From assembly GCA_963740355.1 (NCBI GenBank), contig CAVUDW010000003.1, forward strand, positions 768,001 through 832,000: 64,000 bases of DNA. The letters are read 5' to 3'. The position numbers and the translations under genes are program-made. The stretch comes from an uncultured Gemmatimonadaceae bacterium. GTDB lineage: Bacteria; Gemmatimonadota; Gemmatimonadetes; Gemmatimonadales; Gemmatimonadaceae. Positions 29,928 through 41,215 of the stretch are shown here, piece by piece; positions within the stretch are counted from its first letter, which is position 1, and the number at the start of each line of letters is the position of its first letter. Under the pieces are notes generated by a model. That model worked only from the letters and a program-made list of their open reading frames with translations. It made no database searches and was not told where the DNA came from.

Positions 29928-32708
29928 CTAGCGATTGAGCTGGATTTCCGAGCGCACGTAGAAGAAGCGCCCGTTGTAGCCGAACGGCGACGCACCAGGC
30001 CAGATGAAGGTGCCGTTGTTCGTGTTGGCAGACACCCGCGTCTGGTCGGGATAGACGTTGAAGAGGTTGCGTGCGCCAAGGGAGAGGTTGATGGCCTCGA
30101 AGCGGTATCCGATTTCGGTATCGAAGATGAACTTCTGGCCGAATGGCTCCAGCCCATCGAGACTGCCATCGATGAAGCGACCGTAGTCGGACACGCGACC
30201 AAGGGCATGCCAGCGACCGACGGAATAGTTGGTCGTGAACGAGGACCGGCGATCCGGGCGATTCTTCTCGATCGCATTGATCGTCACGATATCGAGCGCA
30301 CTGGTGTAGCTCGACCCCTTGCCCACGAGAATGGCCGGCAACCCGTCGATGCGCGTGATCTTGTTCTTGGTGTAATTCAGCGACAGGGTGAAATCGAGGT
30401 TGCCCCGCAGCGCCTGCATGCGATAGTTGCCGACGACGTCGATACCATCGGTCTTGGTGTCGAGGGCGTTGGTTGGGAACTGCACACCGGCGATGGTGGT
30501 GAGCCCAGAATCAGCGAGGATCTGCGCGATGACCGGGTCCGACGACCCATCGAACGTCGCGCCGAGCAGGATGCGATCGTTGATCTTGATGTGGTACACG
30601 TCGACGTTGAAGTTCAGGTTGTTCGTCGGCGAATACGCAAAGCCACCGCTGAGGTTGACCGAAGTCTCTTCCTTCAGCGGCTTGGCACCGAAGATCTTCG
30701 AGGCGCGATTGGTGACGGGGAAGTTGCCGATTTCAACCAGCACACCATTCTGGATCGCCGTGGTGGTGTGACTGTACCAGCTCTGCTGCAGGCCTGGCGC
30801 CCGGAAACCGGTGCTCGCCGCACCACGCAGGATGAACTTCTTGCTCGGCTCGTAGCGGATGGCGGCCTTACCGGTGACCGCACTGCCGAAGTCGCTGTAG
30901 TTCTCGAAGCGCGCGGCGCCGTTGATCAGCACCCGGTCGGTCAGGTTCGTCTCCAGATCGACGTAGCCACCGAAGTTCGTGCGATCATTCTTGCTGGCGT
31001 CTGTCGGCGCAAAGCCCTGGAACACCGACGACCCGCCCTGCGCCACACTGGAACTGTCGCGCGTGAGGTGGTAGCCGTTGATCCACGAGGCGCGTTCACC
31101 GGCGACCACTTCGTACTGCTCGCGACGGAATGCCGCACCGAATGCCACGTTCACGGGCTTCGGCATGCCAAGGTTGACCTGGTTCGAGAAGTTCAGGCCG
31201 ACGTTGAACTCACCGCGCTTGAGTGCGCCGGCATCGAACTGCGTCTGGTTCGGAATCCCTGGGTCGTCACTGGTGCCGAGGCGCCCATCAGGTCCCGGCG
31301 CAGTCGGCGTCGAGAGGCTCGGGCCGAGTGACGAGTTGAGCGTATTGCGCAGGTTGAACTGGAAGCTGTTGTAGCCGTAGTTGCTGGTGAGATCGGTGGC
31401 CCAGCCGCCGAGCATGGTGCGGATGCCGCCGGCCGCCGAGTAATCGATCACGCTCGGCCGGAATTCCGGGAGGAAGCCGAGTGGATAGATCTGTGGCCAG
31501 TTGCGCGAGTTCTGCGGCTTGCGGAAGAAGCCATTGCCGGTGCCATCACGATCGGAGTAGCCGCCGAACGCAAAGAACTCGGTGCTGCCCGATGCGTTGA
31601 GCGGGATGCGCAGATTGGCAAAGGTGTGAATGTCGCGTTCGATGCCGTCGCCCCAGTGCACGTTCGGCTGCGGCACACCGGTGCGCTTCTGGACCACGCG
31701 GCAATCCTGCACCACGTCGGAGACGCCATTGAGGTCGGGGAAGCTGCCGTCAGGGCAGGCGCGGTTGGTCGCATCGCGGTTCAGGTACTGCCCGAAGAGG
31801 CTGAGCGAGCCGCGACCGCCGAGCTTGAAGCCGACACCGCCGTTGACGTCCGTGGTGAGGCCATCGTTCTCATAGCCCTTGCCCGGGCGGTACTGTCCGA
31901 CGCTGGTGTTCACGAACGGGTTGAACTGTCCTTCCTTGAGCACGAGGTTCACCACGCCGGCGATGGCATCGGACCCGTACTGCGTGGATGCGCCATCGCG
32001 CAGCACTTCGATGCGCTCGACTGCGCTCGAGGGGAAGGCGTTCAGGTCGACGCCGCTCGATCCCGGCGCCGAACCGTTGGAGAAGACATTCAGCAGCGCT
32101 GTCGTGTGCCGCCGTTGCCCATTGATCAAGACCAGCGAGTGGTCCGGTGACAATCCGCGCAAGGTGAACGGGCGCACGATTTCCGTGGCGTCCGTGACAG
32201 CCTGCTTGGGGAAGTTCACCGACGGCGAGAGGTTGGCGAGAATCTGCGTCGTCTCCGTCGATCCGGACCGCCGCAGTTCTTCCACGGTGTACACGTCAAC
32301 CGGTACCGCCAGCTCTTCTGCGGCGGCGTGTCGGGCACGTGATCCGACCAGCGTGCGCACCGGTGCCAGCGTATACGCCGAGCGCTTCAACCGGACATCG
32401 AGCTCGGTGACTCCTGTCGACGACACGTTCACCGAGAGAGACTCCGGTGCAAAGCCGAGTGCACGGACGCGAATCGTGCGGCGCCCAACCGGCAGTCCGG
32501 GCAATGCGTATCGCCCACGCGATGTCGACGTCGTTCGAACGCCACTGCCATCAACCGTGAACTGCGCACCGACGATGACCGCACCGGTGCTGTCCGACAC
32601 GCGCCCCTGCACTGTGCCCGTCTGCGCGGCGAGCGGTCTCGCCGTTGCCGCGAGGATGAGCACAACCGCTGCTCCCGCACCCAACATTCGACTGAAAGAC
32701 GCTCGCAT
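29928..32708 (-). CDS. TonB-dependent receptor
   Basis: Signal peptide, LRGLSPD..LVLINGQRRH, ERIEVLRDGASTQYGSDAIAGVVN, STGFRAP, C-terminal SPFGYNGRFFY. Confidence 0.95.
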   Translation of the reverse strand: MRASFSRMLGAGAAVVLILAATARPLAAQTGTVQGRVSDSTGAVIVGAQFTVDGSGVRTTSTSRGRYALPGLPVGRRTIRVRALGFAPESLSVNVSSTGVTELDVRLKRSAYTLAPVRTLVGSRARHAAAEELAVPVDVYTVEELRRSGSTETTQILANLSPSVNFPKQAVTDATEIVRPFTLRGLSPDHSLVLINGQRRHTTALLNVFSNGSAPGSSGVDLNAFPSSAVERIEVLRDGASTQYGSDAIAGVVNLVLKEGQFNPFVNTSVGQYRPGKGYENDGLTTDVNGGVGFKLGGRGSLSLFGQYLNRDATNRACPDGSFPDLNGVSDVVQDCRVVQKRTGVPQPNVHWGDGIERDIHTFANLRIPLNASGSTEFFAFGGYSDRDGTGNGFFRKPQNSRNWPQIYPLGFLPEFRPSVIDYSAAGGIRTMLGGWATDLTSNYGYNSFQFNLRNTLNSSLGPSLSTPTAPGPDGRLGTSDDPGIPNQTQFDAGALKRGEFNVGLNFSNQVNLGMPKPVNVAFGAAFRREQYEVVAGERASWINGYHLTRDSSSVAQGGSSVFQGFAPTDASKNDRTNFGGYVDLETNLTDRVLINGAARFENYSDFGSAVTGKAAIRYEPSKKFILRGAASTGFRAPGLQQSWYSHTTTAIQNGVLVEIGNFPVTNRASKIFGAKPLKEETSVNLSGGFAYSPTNNLNFNVDVYHIKINDRILLGATFDGSSDPVIAQILADSGLTTIAGVQFPTNALDTKTDGIDVVGNYRMQALRGNLDFTLSLNYTKNKITRIDGLPAILVGKGSSYTSALDIVTINAIEKNRPDRRSSFTTNYSVGRWHALGRVSDYGRFIDGSLDGLEPFGQKFIFDTEIGYRFEAINLSLGARNLFNVYPDQTRVSANTNNGTFIWPGASPFGYNGRFFYVRSEIQLNR

Positions 32709-33055
32709 CCCTGCCCCCATGCTGTCCAGGTGAACGTGCCCTACATACGCGACTGCCAGCGTCGTACAGTCGCGACCTGCAAAAACCGACAGCACCTGAG
32801 TGACGCGACCGACACACGTTGTGCCGCGCTGAGCAACTCGGTGGATGACATATCAACTGGAGGGTGACGTCATCATGGAGCGTTCTGGGCCATCGCGCAA
32901 CCGTTACACGCGAGGTGACAGATGACTGATGAGTTTGCTAGCAATCGGCGCCGATTACTTCTCGCACCGTGCTCGCTATGTTGCGAAGCTGCGGGTACCC
33001 GGGCGACTTATTCGCTCCGCGAGACCATTTGATTTTGCGGTCCCAACATCGATTT

Positions 33056-34285
33056 CTACGCGCTTTGACGTTGCTCCGTCGAGCGCTCGCTGGCACTTGC
33101 ACTGCCGCCCGTTGGATCCTCGGGCTCCTCTCCGCCACTACCCACGCACTGACCGCGACCAGTACGCTTCGCCAGCAACAAGCGTTGATCGGCCAGCGTC
33201 ACCAGTGACTTCGGTGCGGGGGCCATGGCGTCGTCAGGGATGCCCGACACACCGGCGCTGAAGTTGAGCCGCACGATCTCGCCACGCCCGATCACGATCG
33301 AGGTCGCCGCCACTTCCTGCCGCAGCACCTCGATGCGAGCGAGCGCGATGGCGCAGGTGGTGCCGGGCATGAGCACGACGAACTCCTCGCCGCCGTACCG
33401 CGCCACGATGTCGGTGCGACGCATGGCTCCCGCCAGCAACTCCGCCACCTGTCGCAGCGCACGATCACCAACCTCGTGCCCATGCTCATCGTTGATGCGC
33501 TTGAAGTGATCGATGTCGATCAGGGCCAACGCCAGCGGGCGATTCTCGCGCGCCGCGACATCCAGCGCCGTCACCAACACCCGATCGAAATGCCCCCGGT
33601 TGAACAGGCCGGTGAGACGATCACGCGAGGCCAGATAAAGCAACTGCTGCGCACGCCGCACGATCGCGACCGATAGGATCGTGGCCACGCCGAGGAGGAG
33701 CATGCGCGTGGCGAGATCGACGATCGAGTACGGCCCAGCGGCGTTGATGTACGACGGATCGTGGAGATTGAACTTCGTCGCGGCGTACAACCAGAGGCTG
33801 CCGAATTCCGCGAGGGTCAGGGCGCCGATGACGATGCAGATCCTGGCGTCATAGCGCAGGCTGGTGGCCACGATCGCGAGGAAATACATCTCGAACGTGA
33901 CCGTCGAGTTGAGCGCGATCATCGGCGACGCGACAATCAGGAAGCTGAGCAGCGCGAGGCTGACCATCGACACGTCGAAGGCACTCGAGGCGAAGCTCAC
34001 CCAGGGGCGCCAGCGACCGCCACGCAGCATCCACCAGATCCCAACCGAGACACACGCGGCGACGACCGTGACCGTGAAGCCGGTGCGATGCATCGCCATC
34101 CACGGGTAGTGCAGCACGTTCCAGGTCGGTGCGATGAGCAGCAATGCCATCGCCACCATGCGAACGCGAGCCACGACGTATTCGCCCTCGACACCTGCCG
34201 CAGCGAGGGCAGCGTCTGGCTGCGCCCACAGCGAGGGTGCCTCAGCGTCTTCCGTCACGCTGTTGAGCGAATTCAAGATGGCCAT
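33056..34285 (-). CDS. Membrane-bound diguanylate cyclase
   Basis: N-terminal TM helices; DRLTGLFNR, DIDHFKRIND, RRTD I-site, GGEEF. Confidence 0.93.
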   Translation of the reverse strand: MAILNSLNSVTEDAEAPSLWAQPDAALAAAGVEGEYVVARVRMVAMALLLIAPTWNVLHYPWMAMHRTGFTVTVVAACVSVGIWWMLRGGRWRPWVSFASSAFDVSMVSLALLSFLIVASPMIALNSTVTFEMYFLAIVATSLRYDARICIVIGALTLAEFGSLWLYAATKFNLHDPSYINAAGPYSIVDLATRMLLLGVATILSVAIVRRAQQLLYLASRDRLTGLFNRGHFDRVLVTALDVAARENRPLALALIDIDHFKRINDEHGHEVGDRALRQVAELLAGAMRRTDIVARYGGEEFVVLMPGTTCAIALARIEVLRQEVAATSIVIGRGEIVRLNFSAGVSGIPDDAMAPAPKSLVTLADQRLLLAKRTGRGQCVGSGGEEPEDPTGGSASASERSTEQRQSA

Positions 34286-34469
34286 GGACTGAGGGCGAGC
34301 GGAGGCGACCTGCGAGGGCTGGGCCGGGCGTGGCGTCAGGCCCCGGTTAAAACCTGACGCGCAACCCTCGCAATAAACTACGCCGCCCACGGATCCCTGC
34401 GCTCGCGTGACCGACGCGTGACACGCGTTGCCGTACCGTGCGTGACATGCGGGCACGTCGAGCGCGTCG

Positions 34470-35939
34470 TCATCGTGCGGCCCCCGACGGGCAGAGCGGT
34501 GCGCCGGACGCCACCCATTCAGCCATCCGCACCTGCGGCAGGTCGCGACTGCGCCAGTCACCGAACCCTGCGCCTTCGTCGCTGGCGCGCTGGCGCCAAT
34601 GCCAGTGCATGCCGGCGAAGAGCGTGCTGCACTCGGATTGGCTGATCCGCGCCGCGGATTCACGCAGTGCGGGCAGCGCGTCGGCCGAGAGCCGGCTGTG
34701 ATACATCGCATCGAAGGCATGGCCGGCCTCGGCGCGAGCGACGTTGACTCGCACCACGATCGCCTCAGGGTTGGCGAGGTTGAGCAGCGCGACCCACACC
34801 ACTGTATTCAGCACCGTCACCGGCGCGAAGAACGATGCACGGCCACGCAGTGTGGTGGCCGCGAAGGTACAGATGGTCGCCAGGACCCACACGATGGCCG
34901 CGCTCGCAAGACTGCGATCGATCGTGAGGCCGAATTCGCTCACGTAGAGCCAGATCCGGGTCGCCGACGAGGCCAGGAGTGTAGCAACGAGTCCGAGCAA
35001 CGCGCCCGCCACCAGTCGGTAGTGGCGACGCTCGCGCGCATCGTCATCACTCATCAGCCACTCAGCCAGCACCAGCGTGCCGATCACCACGCCTGCGGCC
35101 AGGATCAACTGGAAGAATCCGTCTCGTGCATACGTCGCCACCGACAATCCTTCCGTCTCCCGCAGGAACGCCGCGCCACCGAACACGACGCGTGCCTGTG
35201 TGACCACGAAGAGCACCAGAAGCGCCAGGAGCGAGTAGAGCGCCACCGCCACGCTGAGAAACGAGAGGCCCGGTGTGCGAAGCTCGGGAAGCGACGCACC
35301 CATCGCGCTGCCGACACCGGCGCGCAACCATCCCGCCGCCAGCCACGCCAGCAGCAGCGCGATGACGACATGCGACAACCCATCGGCGAAGACCGTCGTC
35401 ATGATCTGGCTCATGACCCCTTCGAACACCTTGTCCGACGCCGCCAGCAGCGCAGTCACGATCAGCAGGGGAGGTGCGGCGAGCACCGCGCCGATGGTCA
35501 GCGCGCGTGCACTGCCTTTTCGTTGCGCGAGGGCCTCGCGTTCGCCGATCCCTTCCTCGAACACACGCGCCGCCCCGCCGATGGTGTTGAAGACGGCGAG
35601 AATGCCGACACGCGCCGACTCCACCATCGTAAGATCGGAAAGGCTTCTGCCTGTGCCATGCCAGATCGTGAGTGCGCCCATACAGATCACCGAGAGCATA
35701 TCGATGGCGTAGAGCATCGGCGAATCACGCCAGGCCAGCCCCATCGCGGCCAACGCCACACCACCGAGCATCAAGGTGCGCTCGGTATCGGGTCGAACAC
35801 CGAGCACGAACACCGAGGTCACGAGCCCGAACATCCAGAGCGCGAAGCCGAATCGCCACATGCCACCGCGCAACAACAGGTCACCGGACACGCCCACCAG
35901 CGTCGCGGCCGTCAGGATCCTCCACGCGCGAGTGTGCAT
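34470..35939 (-). CDS. DUF4153/DUF4173 family membrane protein
   Basis: LLAASDKVF, YARDGFFQL, RIWLY..FGLT.DR, NPEAIVVRVN, LSADA. Confidence 0.85.
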   Translation of the reverse strand: MHTRAWRILTAATLVGVSGDLLLRGGMWRFGFALWMFGLVTSVFVLGVRPDTERTLMLGGVALAAMGLAWRDSPMLYAIDMLSVICMGALTIWHGTGRSLSDLTMVESARVGILAVFNTIGGAARVFEEGIGEREALAQRKGSARALTIGAVLAAPPLLIVTALLAASDKVFEGVMSQIMTTVFADGLSHVVIALLLAWLAAGWLRAGVGSAMGASLPELRTPGLSFLSVAVALYSLLALLVLFVVTQARVVFGGAAFLRETEGLSVATYARDGFFQLILAAGVVIGTLVLAEWLMSDDDARERRHYRLVAGALLGLVATLLASSATRIWLYVSEFGLTIDRSLASAAIVWVLATICTFAATTLRGRASFFAPVTVLNTVVWVALLNLANPEAIVVRVNVARAEAGHAFDAMYHSRLSADALPALRESAARISQSECSTLFAGMHWHWRQRASDEGAGFGDWRSRDLPQVRMAEWVASGAPLCPSGAAR

Positions 35940-36619
35940 CAGGCGCTCGCCCGGTGTGAGAGGCTGCCGAACCGACGATCGCGGCGGGCAAAGTCAGCGA
36001 ACACCTCGTCGAGGGTGGCGGGGGTGATGTCGGGCCAGAGCACGTCGATGAACGACAGTTCGGCGTACGCACATTCCCAGAGCAGGAAGTCAGAGAGCCG
36101 GCGTTCACCGCCGGTTCGCAGGAGCAGATCGACCGGCGGCAGCAACTCGGCGGCGTCGGCGGTGGCGGGTGCGGCGCCCGGCGTCGTGCCGGCGCGTGCG
36201 ATGGCATCACGACTCGAATAGTCGATGGCGACGCGGAGGTGCATCGCGCGACCATTGGCCGTGGCGGTTTCGGCATCGCGAATGGCGCTGCGCAGCGCGA
36301 TCGGCAGTCGCGTGCGGCGACCGATCACGGTGACACGAACGCCGGCGCGTGCGAGCGCAGCGGACTGCGACCGGAAGTGCGAGGTGAAGAGCGTGAGCAG
36401 CGTGTTCACCTCCGCTGTCGGTCGGCGCCAGTTGTCGCTGCTGAACGCATACAGCGTGAGTTGCTCGATGCCGGTGCGGGCGCAGTGTTCGACGACGTCG
36501 CGCATGGCGCGCGCGCCGGCGAGGTGTCCGATGGAGCGCCGGTGTCCGCGTTGTTCGGCCCAGCGTCCGTTGCCGTCCATGATGACGGCGAAGTGTTGTG
36601 GCAGAGCACTTTGTTTCAT
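35939..36619 (-). CDS. uppS: cis-prenyltransferase (undecaprenyl diphosphate synthase paralogue)
   Basis: IMDGNGRWA, GH, YAFSSDNWRRP..EV, DLLLRTGGERRLSDFLLWECAYAE, RRFG. Confidence 0.93.
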   Translation of the reverse strand: MKQSALPQHFAVIMDGNGRWAEQRGHRRSIGHLAGARAMRDVVEHCARTGIEQLTLYAFSSDNWRRPTAEVNTLLTLFTSHFRSQSAALARAGVRVTVIGRRTRLPIALRSAIRDAETATANGRAMHLRVAIDYSSRDAIARAGTTPGAAPATADAAELLPPVDLLLRTGGERRLSDFLLWECAYAELSFIDVLWPDITPATLDEVFADFARRDRRFGSLSHRASA

Positions 36620-36627
36620 AAAGTCTG
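36605..36627. promoter_or_regulatory. Operator-like palindrome overlapping the uppS start codon
   Basis: AGCACTTTG-TTTCA-TAAAGTCTG, same core as 37825-37847. Confidence 0.6.
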
Positions 36628-36756
36628 TCTCCCAAAAAAGGACGCCGGCGGGCGTCGCGTGAAAACCTGCAAAATTTCTGCCCTGACTTCCGCACCATCT
36701 CGTTCCCTGCACCGTCGATCGCACCTCGCCATCATCCGAGCGCGTATCGGCTGCGC

Positions 36757-37152
36757 TCAGCCCTTTTCTCCGACGCGGCGAATCAGCGCTTCCATGTGCG
36801 ACAGGTATCGCTCCAGCGCGTCCCGCCCCGTGGCCGTCAATCGATATTCCGTGCGCGGGATGCGCCCGTCGTAGCCCTTCGTGCAGGTGACGTAGTGCGC
36901 TTCTTCCAGCTTGCGCGCGTGCACCGAGAGGTTGCCGTCGGAGGTCTCGAGCAGCGCCTTCAACTCGTTGAACGTCAGCACCGCATGCACCGCGAGGGCA
37001 CTGACGATGGCGAGTCGGATGCGCTCATGAATGAGGCGATCGAGCGCCAGCGGCGAACTGACATCGCCGGCCACAGACGCGAGTGCCGTGGGAAGTTCAG
37101 CCGGTGGCGTCACGGCACCCTTCTTCGCGGCAGCCGAGGCGCGCTTAGCCAC
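36757..37152 (-). CDS. Winged-helix transcriptional regulator (HTH_34, ArsR/MarR-like)
   Basis: LDRLIHERIRLAIVSAL..FNELK..SDGNLSVHARKLEEA..PRTEYRLT; GTG with GGAGG, overlapping the upstream stop. Confidence 0.9.
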   Translation of the reverse strand: MAKRASAAAKKGAVTPPAELPTALASVAGDVSSPLALDRLIHERIRLAIVSALAVHAVLTFNELKALLETSDGNLSVHARKLEEAHYVTCTKGYDGRIPRTEYRLTATGRDALERYLSHMEALIRRVGEKG

Positions 37153-37789
37153 CGTGCCTCCGTGCAATCCAGATCCCGAATGCGATTTGCCATGCGCCAA
37201 ACCCCAGGGCGAGCAGGACATTGCCTGAGATGCGTGTCGTGAGCAGCGCCAGCGTGCCCATCGCCATCAACCCCGCACCCATCATTGGCACGGCGCGCAC
37301 CGAGAAGGCACCGGCGGTGGTGACGGCTACGCCGTAGAGCAGCAACCAGAGGCCCGGCAGCACGCGCGGCACCGGTGCGGCGTCGAGCCACAGGCTGGCC
37401 GGGTCGACCAGCGCATAGGTCATCACCGCACCGGCCAGCATCGCGGGCCAGAAGCCGAAGAGGAATTTCCGCGCCGGCACACTCATCACGGGGGCGCCAG
37501 TGACGCGCACCCGACGGCGCATCTTCTGCCACATGGCCAGGCCACCGATGATGACGGCGAGGCAAGCTTCGGCCATCCAGACACCGAACCAGCGGCCGGC
37601 GCTGGGTTGCAGCGACGCGTAGCGAGCGGCCGCGATGGCAGTCAGGCCGATGCCCACCAGTCCCCAGCCTGGCACATCCGTAAAGGACGACGCTCCTTCC
37701 ATCGTGCGACGGATGAAGGACAGGTCCTGAATCGCACGGTCGTGCAGCGCCGGCGGATCGGACGGGGGTTGGCGTACCGGGGAGGCCAT
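37145..37789 (-). CDS. Membrane protein (DLSFIRRTME family), probable sensor or anti-repressor partner
   Basis: About 6 TM segments; overlaps the wHTH gene; role inferred from context. Confidence 0.75.
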   Translation of the reverse strand: MASPVRQPPSDPPALHDRAIQDLSFIRRTMEGASSFTDVPGWGLVGIGLTAIAAARYASLQPSAGRWFGVWMAEACLAVIIGGLAMWQKMRRRVRVTGAPVMSVPARKFLFGFWPAMLAGAVMTYALVDPASLWLDAAPVPRVLPGLWLLLYGVAVTTAGAFSVRAVPMMGAGLMAMGTLALLTTRISGNVLLALGFGAWQIAFGIWIARRHGG

Positions 37790-37819
37790 GGGTGAATGGA
37801 TACGCGATGGTTTCCGGGC

Positions 37820-37847
37820 TGTCAAGTACTTTGTGCTGCAAAGCACT
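37820..37847 (-). promoter_or_regulatory. -35 box and palindromic operator upstream of the membrane protein-wHTH-uppS-DUF4153 operon
   Basis: AGTACTTTG-N5-CAAAGCACT (8/9 symmetric) abutting minus-strand TTGACA at 37825-37820. Confidence 0.75.
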
Positions 37848-38098
37848 GGGATCCCCGCCTGCAGCCTCGACGGTTGCATCCGAGGCCCGGGCTGATATAC
37901 CATCATGCGTCCGTCGCCTGCGAGAGCATGTCGTCGGAACAGCTGTCCGGTCACGGGACAGCTTCGCGCACCTTGGCCTGCACGAGTCGCCGACAGACTC
38001 GCGCACTGTCCCATCCAGATCCCCCGCCACTCCCACCGACTCGTCGCGGACACCGGGATCACAGGACGCGTTCATACTCCACCCAGGGAGAATTGGTC

Positions 38099-41000
38099 AT
38101 GCCTCAACACTGGCGCCACACGGTGGCGCTCGCGGTGCTGTTCGCGACCGCCGCTCCGCAATTGCGCGCCCAGCAAAGTGCTGGCGGTACCGTCGTCGTA
38201 CGCGTCACCGGCGCCGCCGACCAGCGGCCGATCGAGTCTGCCCGGGTCTTTCTCGTCGGTACCAACTTCGCGAGCCAGACGTCACCCGACGGGCGCGTGA
38301 CCTTCCGCGCCGTGCCGGCCAACAGCTACACGGTGCGAGTCCTGCGCGTCGGCTACGCCGAGCAGACGAAGCGCGTTGCCGTCGCCGTCGGAAGCACCAG
38401 CAACGTTGACGTGGCGATGAGCGCAGCCGCCGTGAACCTCGCCACCGTCGTCACCACGGCGACCGGTGAGCAGCGTCGCGTCGAAATTGGCAATGCGACG
38501 GCGAACATCGACGTCGCGAGCGTGGTCGAGTCATCGCCAGTGGGGAACCTGAACGACCTGCTCAACTCGCGGGCCCCTGGTGTCACCGTGACCAGTGGCA
38601 CGCAGACCGGGACGGGCGCCCGCATTCGTATTCGCGGCAGCAATTCAGTCAGCCTCTCGAATGAACCGATCTGGATCATCGATGGCATCCGCATGACAAG
38701 CACCAACGCCAACTTTTCCACCGCCACTGGCAATGGTGCGGGCGCGAACACGGGCGGCAACAACGCCAGCCGTATCGGCGACCTCAATCCCGACGAGATC
38801 GAGAGCATCGAGATCGTGAAGGGCCCGTCGGCCGCGACACTCTACGGCACCGACGCAGCCAACGGCGTCATCCTCGTGAAGACGAAGCGCGGTCGCGCCG
38901 GTGCAGCGCGCTGGTCGATCTATGGAGAAGCGGGATCCGTGCGGGATCGCAACAACTACCCCACCGCGTACAGTCTCTGGGGAAAGCGACCGGGCGAAAC
39001 CGTCTCGTCGCGCGCGTTCTGCAACCTGCAGCGCGTTGGCACCGGTGAGTGCATCGCCGACTCGACCAGTGCCCTCAACATCTTCAACGAAAAGGACCTC
39101 ACGCCGCTGGCCACGGGCAACCGTCGGCAGACGGGCCTGCAGGTCTCCGGTGGCAGCGAGGCGGTCCGGTACTTCGTCGCCGCGGAAGATGAGAATGAAA
39201 TCGGCGTCTTGTCGCTCCCACAATTCGAGCGCCAGCGCTTCGACTCGGCGGGAATCCCGCTGCGGAGTTGGGTGGACCGGCCGAACCAGATGAACCGCCG
39301 CTCCTTGCGGGCGAACGTGAATGCGACCGTGAGCCCGAAGCTGGAGCTCGCGTTCTCGAGCAACTTCATCAATATCGCGCAGCGCTATTCACTCGAGTCC
39401 AACTCGACCGCCGGCCTTGGTTCGCAGGTCTTCGGTGGACCCGGCACGCGCGCGAACGGCACCGTCGCCGGGCTGGGCACGCCACTGAACGGCTACCGCG
39501 CGTGGACACCAGGCTACTCGTGGCAGGAGCAGACGGCGCAAGACGTCAATCGATTCATCTGGTCCACGCAGGCGAACTGGCGTCCGTTCACATGGCTGAC
39601 CAACAATGCCACGGTCGGCAACGACTACTCCTCGATCAGTGACGACAACCTCCTGTATCGCGGTGAAGGGCCACCACTGACGGCCACGACGCGTCTTGGC
39701 TCGCGCGGCATCAACCGGAACAGCACCTACAACCTCACCTTCGACTTTGGATCGACGGCGCAGTACAAGCTGTTCGGGCTGAGCATGAAGTCGACCGCTG
39801 GCGCCCAGTACATTGGCTTCCGCGCCTCAATCGCGAGCACCGGATCCACCCAGTTGGCGCCGGCATCACAGAACGTCTCGTCGGGCACGTCGCCCGTCGT
39901 GAACGAATTCACCACGATCACGAAGACGTTCGGCGCCTTCTATGAACAGTCGATCTCGATCAACGATCGCCTCTTCCTGACCGCGGCCGTGCGTAGTGAT
40001 CAGAACTCGGCGTTCGGCACGAACTTCCAGAGCATCGTGTATCCGAAGGCGTCGGTGTCGTACCTGATCTCCGACGAAGAGTGGTTCAAGTCACCGGCGT
40101 GGCTGAATTCCCTCCGGCTCCGGTACGCGTACGGGCAGTCGGGCGTGCAGCCGGGACCGAACGACGCGCTGCTCTACTTCGGCGCCGGGACGACGAACAT
40201 TCAAGCGGCCGACCAGCCCACGCTGGTGCAGGCCGCCCTCGGCAATGCCAACCTGAAGCCCGAGCGTTCCGCCGAGAACGAGGCGGGCTTCGAGGCACAG
40301 ATGTTCGGCAGTCGGCTGAGCCTCGATGCCACGTACTACAGCAAGGTCACGAAGGACGCGTTGATCAGCGCGATCCTGCCTCCCTCGTACGGCTCCGTCG
40401 TCTCGCAGTTCCGCAACCTGGGTTCGGTGAAGAACTCCGGCTGGGAACTCGGCATCACGGCGCAACTGGTGAACAAGTCGTACTTCGGGTGGGACATGAA
40501 TGTGTCCGCATCCGGCAATGCCAATGTCGTGGCCTCACTTGGCGACACGCCTCCGCAGATCGGCACCACCAACCGGACTGTCGCCGGATACCCGATCGCG
40601 GGCTATTGGGCGGCACCGATCACAGGCTGGAAGGACAAGAACGGCGACGGCTTCCTCACGTACTTCGCCGACACGGCACGCAATGAAGTCTTCGTTGCCG
40701 ACTCGGTGGTCTTTCGCGGGTATGCGACGCCGCGATACAACACCACGATCACCAACGGATTCGAGTTCCTCAATCACAAGCTGCGGCTGACCTCCTTGTG
40801 GGACATCCGCAAGGGCAACTTGTGGTACAACAACACGGACCGGATTCGATGCACCCGTCCGAACTGCAGTGGGCGCAACAACCTGGACGCGGAGTTGGTC
40901 GACCAGGCGACCAACATCGCCGCCAACGAAGCGCCGCAACGCACGCTCGATGGCTTTCTGCAGGACGGTGGATTTGTGAGGCTTCGCGAGGCCTCACTGG

Positions 41001-41215
41001 AATACACCTTCTCGCCGGCGCTGGCCGCACGGCTGCTGAAGGCCCGCTCCCTCTCGGTGGTCCTTTCTGGCCGGAACCTGCGTCTCTGGACAAAATATCG
41101 CGGCGTTGATCCGGAGTCGGGCTTCAACACCACCAGCGGCACGGACGCTCCGTCAGAGTTCCAGACGATCGCACCGCCCAGCTACTTCATCTTCCGTTTC
41201 AACCTCGGCTACTAG
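38099..41215 (+). CDS. SusC/RagA family TonB-dependent receptor
   Basis: IRIRG..S, [51 protein letters not shown].G. Confidence 0.96.
   Translation: [1038 protein letters not shown]

Follow-up and report, generated by a model that had tools for sequence, protein, structure and literature searches.

In a stretch of 64,000 nucleotides (nt) from an uncultured Gemmatimonadaceae bacterium (contig CAVUDW010000003.1; referred to as the window), four co-oriented genes on the minus strand between 34470 and 37847 code for a six-transmembrane (6-TM) protein that we call memb, a winged helix-turn-helix (wHTH) regulator of the HTH_34 family, a second uppS (uppS2) and a DUF4153 protein. Two copies of one palindrome accompany them, O1 at the promoter of the operon and O2 over the start codon of uppS2, and both are conserved in related loci of several phyla. 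Judging from the sequence comparisons below, we consider it probable that the wHTH protein is an autorepressor with a membrane partner, which would block initiation of transcription at O1 and read-through at O2 and thereby tie extra synthesis of the lipid carrier to the production of surface polysaccharide.

Results

Two copies of one palindrome in a conserved operon

The host genome has a size of 5.45 Mb and a G+C content of 65%, and its named relatives belong to the Gemmatimonadota. An initial annotation of the window, made from the letters alone, had described the four genes as two translationally coupled pairs, and this arrangement was recovered with overlaps of 8 nt between memb and the wHTH gene and of 1 nt between uppS2 and the DUF4153 gene (Table 1). 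It had also placed a palindrome next to a perfect TTGACA upstream of the first gene. Indeed, O1 reads AGTACTTTGTGCTGCAAAGCACT on the plus strand (37825-37847), and its end overlaps the hexamer TTGACA (minus strand, 37825-37820) by 1 nt. The second copy, O2 (36605-36627), covers the ATG of uppS2 (36619-36617). When we searched for ACTTTGN5CAAAGT with at most one mismatch, O1 and O2 were the only hits, whether the search covered the window or all 5.45 Mb. A reversed control pattern gave one hit in the same genome, so the number of sites alone is unremarkable; chance does not account for the placement of both in the two leader regions of a single operon, nor for their conservation across phyla.

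Of 151 genomes sampled from the phylum, 102 carry memb, and no fewer than 594 loci with the gene turned up in a species-genome collection, the best 80 of which include Acidobacteriota (Pyrinomonadaceae, Blastocatellia, Bryobacterales, Terriglobia) and one genome of the Eisenbacteria. In all loci examined memb is followed by the wHTH gene, which was present in 55 of 61 relatives. For the analysis of the operators the loci were pooled, which left 138 distinct loci out of 145. With up to three mismatches allowed, 126 of the 134 loci that could be assessed, which come from Gemmatimonadota, Acidobacteriota and other phyla, had O1, and the bases that flank it were not conserved. At the same threshold O2, looked for in the 230 nt that follow the wHTH gene, was present in 89 of 132 loci, compared to 68 of 690 random 245-nt windows of the same loci, a control in which the windows can include real sites. 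Thus, the motif search upstream of orthologous loci that the initial annotation had proposed did recover the motif at both positions.

The palindrome was also restricted to genomes carrying the module. We counted 57 perfect palindromes in 38 of 201 genomes versus 6 for the reversed control pattern. Among the genomes scanned both for memb and for the palindrome, a hand count gave a perfect site in none of 16 memb-negative genomes versus 28 of 61 memb-positive ones (the siteless genome G102 is counted among the 61). Within one family (f7), memb is present in each of the five genomes that have perfect sites and is next to the site in three of them; five memb-less genomes of the family are without a perfect site, and four of these five have no wHTH match either. 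Together with the position of O1 at the operon promoter in nearly all relatives, these counts support the earlier proposal of a genuine operator that belongs to the wHTH protein. We infer that this protein is what binds ACTTTG-N5-CAAAGT, because the site lies at its own promoter, because its recognition region and the operator are both nearly invariant, and because site and module co-occur.

O1 lies at a promoter predicted to give a leaderless mRNA

Throughout the loci that have O1, it sits at the promoter of the wHTH operon itself and abuts the -35 element. The core of the palindrome is followed by AC and then by the -35 hexamer, which is a perfect TTGACA at 84 of the 126 O1 sites and agrees in five of six bases at 29 more, and a -10 element of the form (T)AnnnT follows at a spacer of 16-18 nt in 105 of the 126. 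The start codon was found 5-8 nt past the -10 element at 86 of 103 O1 sites, and the distance from palindrome to start codon was 53-57 nt in 110 of the 121 O1 loci with a start-codon candidate. A word resembling a Shine-Dalgarno (SD) sequence preceded memb at only five of the 126 sites. The promoter of the window was missed by the consensus scan; its -10 element, TATCCA, ends in A, not T. Since the start codon follows the -10 element after 5-8 nt and an SD sequence is nearly always absent, the layout is, on these positions, that of a leaderless memb mRNA made from a strong sigma-70 promoter, which we call P1.

O2 is coupled to a T-tract

The suggestion that the first codons of uppS2 double as part of an operator is supported: across loci, the start codon lies inside O2 in 65 of 89 cases and in more than one register. 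The start codon of the long frame is at position +5 of the O2 palindrome in 53 of the 89 and at +8 in eight, so that the register shifts and the palindrome stays. The other 24 O2 sites, mostly from Acidobacteriota, lie about 30-40 nt upstream of an SD-led gene and are not followed by a -10 element. In both layouts O2 tends to be preceded by a T-tract (at least six T in 7 nt), which was detected before 68 of the 89 sites and whose gap to O2 is 7-9 nt in 65 of these 68, most often 8 nt and in the window 9 nt. A T-tract was seen at one of the 126 O1 sites and at none of the remote sites inspected. In the window, a GC-rich stem (36656-36641) directly followed by T6 has the form of an intrinsic terminator; across loci the T-tract recurs more regularly than the hairpin.

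The bases 3' of the palindrome distinguish the two operators. At O2 they read RCTTTG, which amounts to a third half-site (degenerate in the window, CTCTGC), and the corresponding bases at O1, ACTTGAC, are the -35 element. Between T-tract and ATG of uppS2 the window holds 9 nt of SD region and 5 nt of operator; no promoter fits in this space, and therefore transcription of uppS2 and the DUF4153 gene has to come from P1 by read-through. We also considered a second promoter at O2, whose -35 element would be the -35-like third half-site, and rejected it: the acidobacterial loci show no -10 element at a suitable spacing, the genes there are SD-led, and the ATG of the window lies inside O2.

The regulator and the membrane protein

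The wHTH protein matches HTH_34 (PF13601) with 91.5 bits (cut-off 27) over residues 45-124, covering all 80 profile positions. It fails the ArsR/SmtB model NF033788 (25.2 bits, cut-off 55) and the PadR model PF03551 (21 bits, cut-off 27), and its score against Pfam HTH_5 is marginal (23.4 bits, cut-off 22). The recognition region DGNLSVHARKLE is nearly invariant, and the basic N-terminal tail is poorly conserved. In one locus (L061, genome G180) the wHTH frame seems to be disrupted in the recognition region, O2 is absent and only a fragment of uppS is left; the module may be in decay there.

The AF2 model of memb (predicted local distance difference test score, pLDDT, 90.6) consists of an N-terminal helix and six long helices, and the N-terminal cytoplasmic helix (residues ~15-32) is the most conserved soluble part of the protein. 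A fold search returned generic six-helix bundles only, the best with Z 8.8 and a root-mean-square deviation (rmsd) of 3.9 over 142 aligned residues, and an ESM Atlas search with memb gave unnamed clusters only. In almost all loci the overlap GTGGCTAA (37145-37152) dictates how memb ends (…RRHGG) and how the regulator begins (MAK…). Control of the wHTH protein by the 6-TM protein, as initially proposed, is plausible because the translational coupling through the 8-nt overlap is kept in 55 of 61 loci. Our literature search found no study of HTH_34 (PF13601) or of the family of membrane proteins to which memb belongs.

An accessory cis-prenyltransferase and a DUF4153 protein

The uppS2 product has the features of a cis-prenyltransferase: it scores 225 bits against PF01255 and 226 bits against TIGR00055 (cut-off 110), it matches E. 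coli UPPS at 1.5e-51, and the motifs DGNGRW and RTGGE(R/H)R(L/I)S are aligned. Its best NCBIfam model, NF011412, gave 283 versus a cut-off of 334. Roughly 15 residues are absent from the part that follows residue 141. The genome holds a second, higher-scoring uppS at G000:C4:87737-88399 in the order pyrH-frr-uppS-cdsA, and the two proteins are 40% identical. The window uppS is thus an accessory copy, because the other one occupies the housekeeping place; this is what the initial annotation had supposed, and the separate uppS near frr and cdsA that it had proposed to look for exists.

The DUF4153 protein matches PF13687 with 202.8 bits (cut-off 27), and its relatives are labelled DUF4173 by the sources. 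Its structural model has a pLDDT of 85. Foldseek found no match to this model in the PDB at E up to 0.001, and a wide VIA-align comparison gave generic helical matches only (best Z 9.9, rmsd 14.8, 154 aligned); the score of WaaL, a Z of 7.6 (rmsd 6.8, 138 aligned), lies within the noise. A relation to the CreD-like proteins found as cargo in other loci was not detected by hhalign (probability 0.2%). The sole DUF4153 protein of E. coli K-12 is YhgE (NC_000913, 3530715-3532439), which is annotated as a putative transport protein and whose gene sits between hslO and pck and not beside ispU. Among the matches listed for E. coli yhgE, no functional study could be recognised by title, and the literature on DUF4153 yielded nothing relevant by title and abstract.

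Targets in this genome and in relatives

Two parts of the initial interpretation did not stand. It had spoken of a regulon, and the genome-wide scan gave this one operon only; its two-mismatch sites are found next to unrelated genes (Big_5, HTH/Fic) or within coding sequences. It had further tied the circuit to envelope stress, and nothing connects the circuit to it; the targets in relatives (Wza-like, Wzz, WbaP-like and DUF4153 genes) point to surface polysaccharide.

The gene that follows the module is most commonly uppS, which takes this place at 28 of 30 loci and, in a second set, at 52 of 80. The cargo found after O2 in relatives comprises uppS, DUF4153, CreD-like membrane proteins, enzymes resembling lycopene cyclase or geranylgeranyl reductase that use flavin adenine dinucleotide (FAD), B12 radical-SAM enzymes, MgtC/DUF4010 proteins and unnamed proteins of ~228 amino acids (aa). 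In five loci of Pyrinomonadaceae and Blastocatellia (L123, L127, L143, L145 and L148) a geranylgeranyl-reductase-like FAD enzyme is paired with a CreD-like protein behind O2, a pairing that hints at modified (saturated) polyprenyl lipids.

Perfect sites also occur away from the operon. In one genus (g20), which has one uppS, no uppS2 and no DUF4153, extra perfect sites lie between or before genes for Bac_transf (a WbaP-like sugar-phosphate transferase), Wzz/GNVR-kinase and Poly_export proteins; others precede a K+ channel gene and unnamed genes. Another 21 remote perfect sites, in 12 genomes, were examined after one site at a contig end had been dropped. Five of them precede Poly_export (Wza-like) genes, one Wzz, three DUF4153 (one of these with a 500-nt gap that resembles a frameshift), two ABC transporters and one an N-acetyltransferase, and the remaining ones adjoin unrelated or unnamed genes. 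Two tandem operators, 18 nt apart from start to start, stand before a Poly_export gene in genome G084 (L175:2002-2036), and in genome G016, a relative in the genus, a third perfect palindrome (L171:2282, the same site as L072:6105) lies ~4 kb downstream of the operon beside open reading frames (ORFs) without a Pfam family. The recurrent theme of the targets is, by gene family, the assembly and export of polysaccharides that depend on polyprenyl phosphate, together with synthesis of the carrier. A literature search for exopolysaccharide regulators of Gemmatimonadetes gave nothing relevant among the matches listed.

Features and neighbourhood of the locus

Table 1 Features of the memb-wHTH-uppS2-DUF4153 locus (positions in the window; a dot marks operators, for which no strand is assigned).
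Feature	Position	Strand	Basis
memb, six-helix membrane protein, 214 aa	37145..37789	-	Pfam/NCBIfam search, AF2 model
wHTH regulator (HTH_34), 131 aa, GTG start	36757..37152	-	PF13601, 91.5 bits
uppS2, accessory cis-prenyltransferase, 226 aa	35939..36619	-	PF01255 225 bits; TIGR00055 226 bits
Polytopic membrane protein (DUF4153/DUF4173), 489 aa, translation coupled to that of uppS2	34470..35939	-	PF13687
Operator O1, AGTGCTTTG-N5-CAAAGTACT (minus-strand reading), centre ~47 nt upstream of memb start codon	37825..37847	.	
-35 hexamer TTGACA, shares last base of O1	37820..37825	-	
-10-like hexamer TATCCA, spacer 17 nt, 7 nt before memb ATG	37797..37802	-	
Terminator-like GC hairpin (36656-36641) and T6 run (36639-36634), 9 nt before O2 core	36634..36656	-	
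Shine-Dalgarno sequence GGGAG of uppS2	36629..36633	-	sequence
Operator O2, CAGACTTTA-N5-CAAAGTGCT (minus-strand reading), over uppS2 ATG 36619-36617	36605..36627	.	

Downstream of the DUF4153 gene, a minus-strand gene at 33056-34290 ends in a GGDEF-type domain (GGEEF motif in the translation) and is likely to encode a diguanylate cyclase. Such enzymes are often tied to the control of polysaccharides and biofilms. In a relative of the same genus (L071) no GGDEF-type ORF was recognised after DUF4153. The locus is flanked by long ORFs at 29928-32795 (minus) and ~38100-41215 (plus) whose translations, judged by eye, have the look of TonB-dependent outer-membrane receptors.

Discussion

A proposed roadblock-assisted attenuator with a membrane partner

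Gene identities, sites, their conservation and geometry and the targets in relatives are what we observed, and from them the following model suggests itself. The HTH_34 protein would be the autorepressor of the four-gene operon and would bind the palindrome plus the third half-site RCTTTG directly 3' of it. At O1 this third half-site coincides with the -35 element, which the bound regulator would occlude. We take the protein for a repressor because a consensus promoter needs no activator and because the third half-site covers the -35 element. At O2, the bound regulator would stall RNA polymerase on the U-tract and so end the transcript, in the manner of an attenuator assisted by a roadblock; the geometry of such a roadblock relies on the usual reach of the polymerase ahead of its active site. 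In this state memb and wHTH protein would still be made at a basal level, with the cargo genes switched off. The 6-TM protein is the likely receiver of the signal and would take the regulator off the DNA, as SdpI does with SdpR. The cargo would then provide extra polyprenyl-phosphate carrier (uppS2) and a membrane function (DUF4153) for an inducible surface-polysaccharide programme. Such a circuit would follow a logic of supply with demand rather than respond to scarcity, because carrier-consuming genes are co-regulated.

Several observations weigh against this model. The homologue searches gave memb no family in Pfam-A or NCBIfam at E up to 0.01, the SdpI family included. At many loci the T-tract is preceded by a weak hairpin or by none, with a mean z of -0.7 and z below -1 in 43% of the 68. 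Twelve of the 21 remote sites adjoin unrelated or unnamed genes. In the genome studied here, no operator lies within 400 nt of the genes for Poly_export, Wzz and Bac_transf proteins, and even the best candidates show 4-5 mismatches. As to Poly_export, the Wza-like gene begins close to a contig end (~300 nt away) and immediately follows tRNA genes (G000:C1:1-360), and it is this position that leaves its upstream region without an operator. Related genomes are not independent samples, and the centre of O1 near -47 would suit an activator equally well.

Alternative explanations

The operon might instead be a homeostat of the lipid carrier in the manner of SigM, whose 6-TM protein would detect a shortage of undecaprenyl phosphate or damage to the envelope and whose response would raise carrier synthesis; this corresponds to the envelope-stress reading of the initial annotation. 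The fact that uppS2 is the commonest cargo in both sets of loci would fit, and such a pathway exists, with analogues predicted elsewhere (PMC11081497). In relatives, however, the same operator governs the carrier-consuming WbaP-like, Wzz and Wza-like genes, the induction of which at times of scarcity would be counter-productive, and no genes for the cell wall or for carrier recycling were seen among the targets examined. We regard a homeostat of this kind as unlikely.

Somewhat less probable still is that the wHTH protein is an activator, which would recruit RNA polymerase from O1 at about -47 and use O2 in another role, such as anti-termination or DNA looping. The palindrome does lie upstream of the -35 element and not over the -10 element or the start site, and several remote sites, too, have a -35-like hexamer directly downstream of them. 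Promoters that need an activator tend to be poor, though, whereas here the -35 element matches the consensus at 84 of 126 sites and the spacer is optimal; moreover, O2 covers a start codon within the transcription unit, as is typical of sites for repression, and the third half-site overlaps the -35 element.

It is very improbable that another transcription factor binds the palindrome and that the wHTH protein encoded next to it is a bystander, given that O1 always lies at the promoter of the wHTH operon, that site and module co-occur, and that the recognition region DGNLSVHARKLE is nearly invariant like the operator. Finally, one could think of O2 as an RNA hairpin that hides the start codon of uppS2 and controls its translation independently of the wHTH protein, as the palindrome is transcribed and contains AUG, but this is hardly credible in view of a stem of just five A/U-rich pairs whose sixth is broken by the start codon, a conservation that concerns specific bases and not pairing, the occurrence of the same sequence outside mRNA (upstream of the -35 element at O1 and in other promoter regions), 24 loci with the start codon outside O2, and an Rfam search of 34300-38200 that returned no family at E up to 1.

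Significance

The autorepressor model, if it holds, defines an operator, a promoter layout and a set of targets for the HTH_34 family together with a family of membrane proteins, in Gemmatimonadota and Acidobacteriota, which are abundant in soil and for which there is almost no genetics. It also ties the orphan membrane families DUF4153/YhgE and CreD-like to genes of polyprenyl lipids and polysaccharides, so that their function becomes testable. A fuller version, in which the 6-TM protein directly senses the carrier pool or carrier-linked sugar intermediates and holds or releases the HTH_34 repressor, this repressor acts through a new kind of attenuator where polymerase stalls on a U-tract and is lost from the template, carrier synthesis is matched to exopolysaccharide production in both phyla and DUF4153 (YhgE) is a new component in the handling of carrier lipids or polysaccharides, is speculative and, taken as a whole, doubtful.

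Comparison with known systems

The closest known mechanism is SdpR/SdpI of Bacillus subtilis, in which an ArsR-type autorepressor is sequestered by a membrane protein with six transmembrane segments from the same operon (PMC2910880). Both systems combine a small winged-helix autorepressor, here a putative one, and a six-helix membrane protein in one operon with an operator at its own promoter. They differ in gene order, which is reversed here with the membrane protein first and an 8-nt overlap, and in both protein families: our regulator belongs to HTH_34 and reaches 25 bits in the ArsR/SmtB model of NCBIfam (cut-off 55), and memb, unlike SdpI, has no Pfam family. Unlike in SdpR/SdpI, there is no toxin gene, a second operator and a T-tract precede the cargo, and this cargo consists of lipid-carrier and polysaccharide genes.

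With regard to function, the closest concept is SigM of B. subtilis, which together with its membrane anti-sigma complex is presented as a homeostat of undecaprenyl-phosphate use (PMC11081497). In both cases a transcription factor held at the membrane would be tied to the supply of lipid carrier; in contrast to SigM, no sigma or anti-sigma factor is involved here, and the targets in relatives include carrier-consuming polysaccharide genes. That report predicts "analogous homeostatic pathways" for the lipid carrier, and the present circuit may be such a pathway.

Among the single components, the only solved sequence relative of the wHTH protein is PH1061 of Pyrococcus horikoshii (PDB 1ub9), called a hypothetical protein by its depositors, with a winged-helix match of E = 3.7e-5 over residues 40-124; unlike for our regulator, the search showed neither an operator nor a partner for it. 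Like E. coli UppS (IspU), uppS2 keeps the DGNGRW and RTGGE motifs; it adjoins the DUF4153 gene here, whereas yhgE lies apart from ispU in E. coli.

Repression by a transcriptional roadblock is exercised by proteins such as LacI, CodY, CcpA and PurR when bound inside transcription units. O2 resembles their sites in that it lies inside the transcription unit, downstream of the sole available promoter. It differs from them in being paired with a T-tract at a fixed distance of 7-9 nt (65 of 68), such that the stalled polymerase would sit on a U-rich hybrid. We came across no description of such a pairing, though no literature search was aimed at it; it suggests that termination could be placed under the control of a protein bound to DNA in a simple and portable manner.

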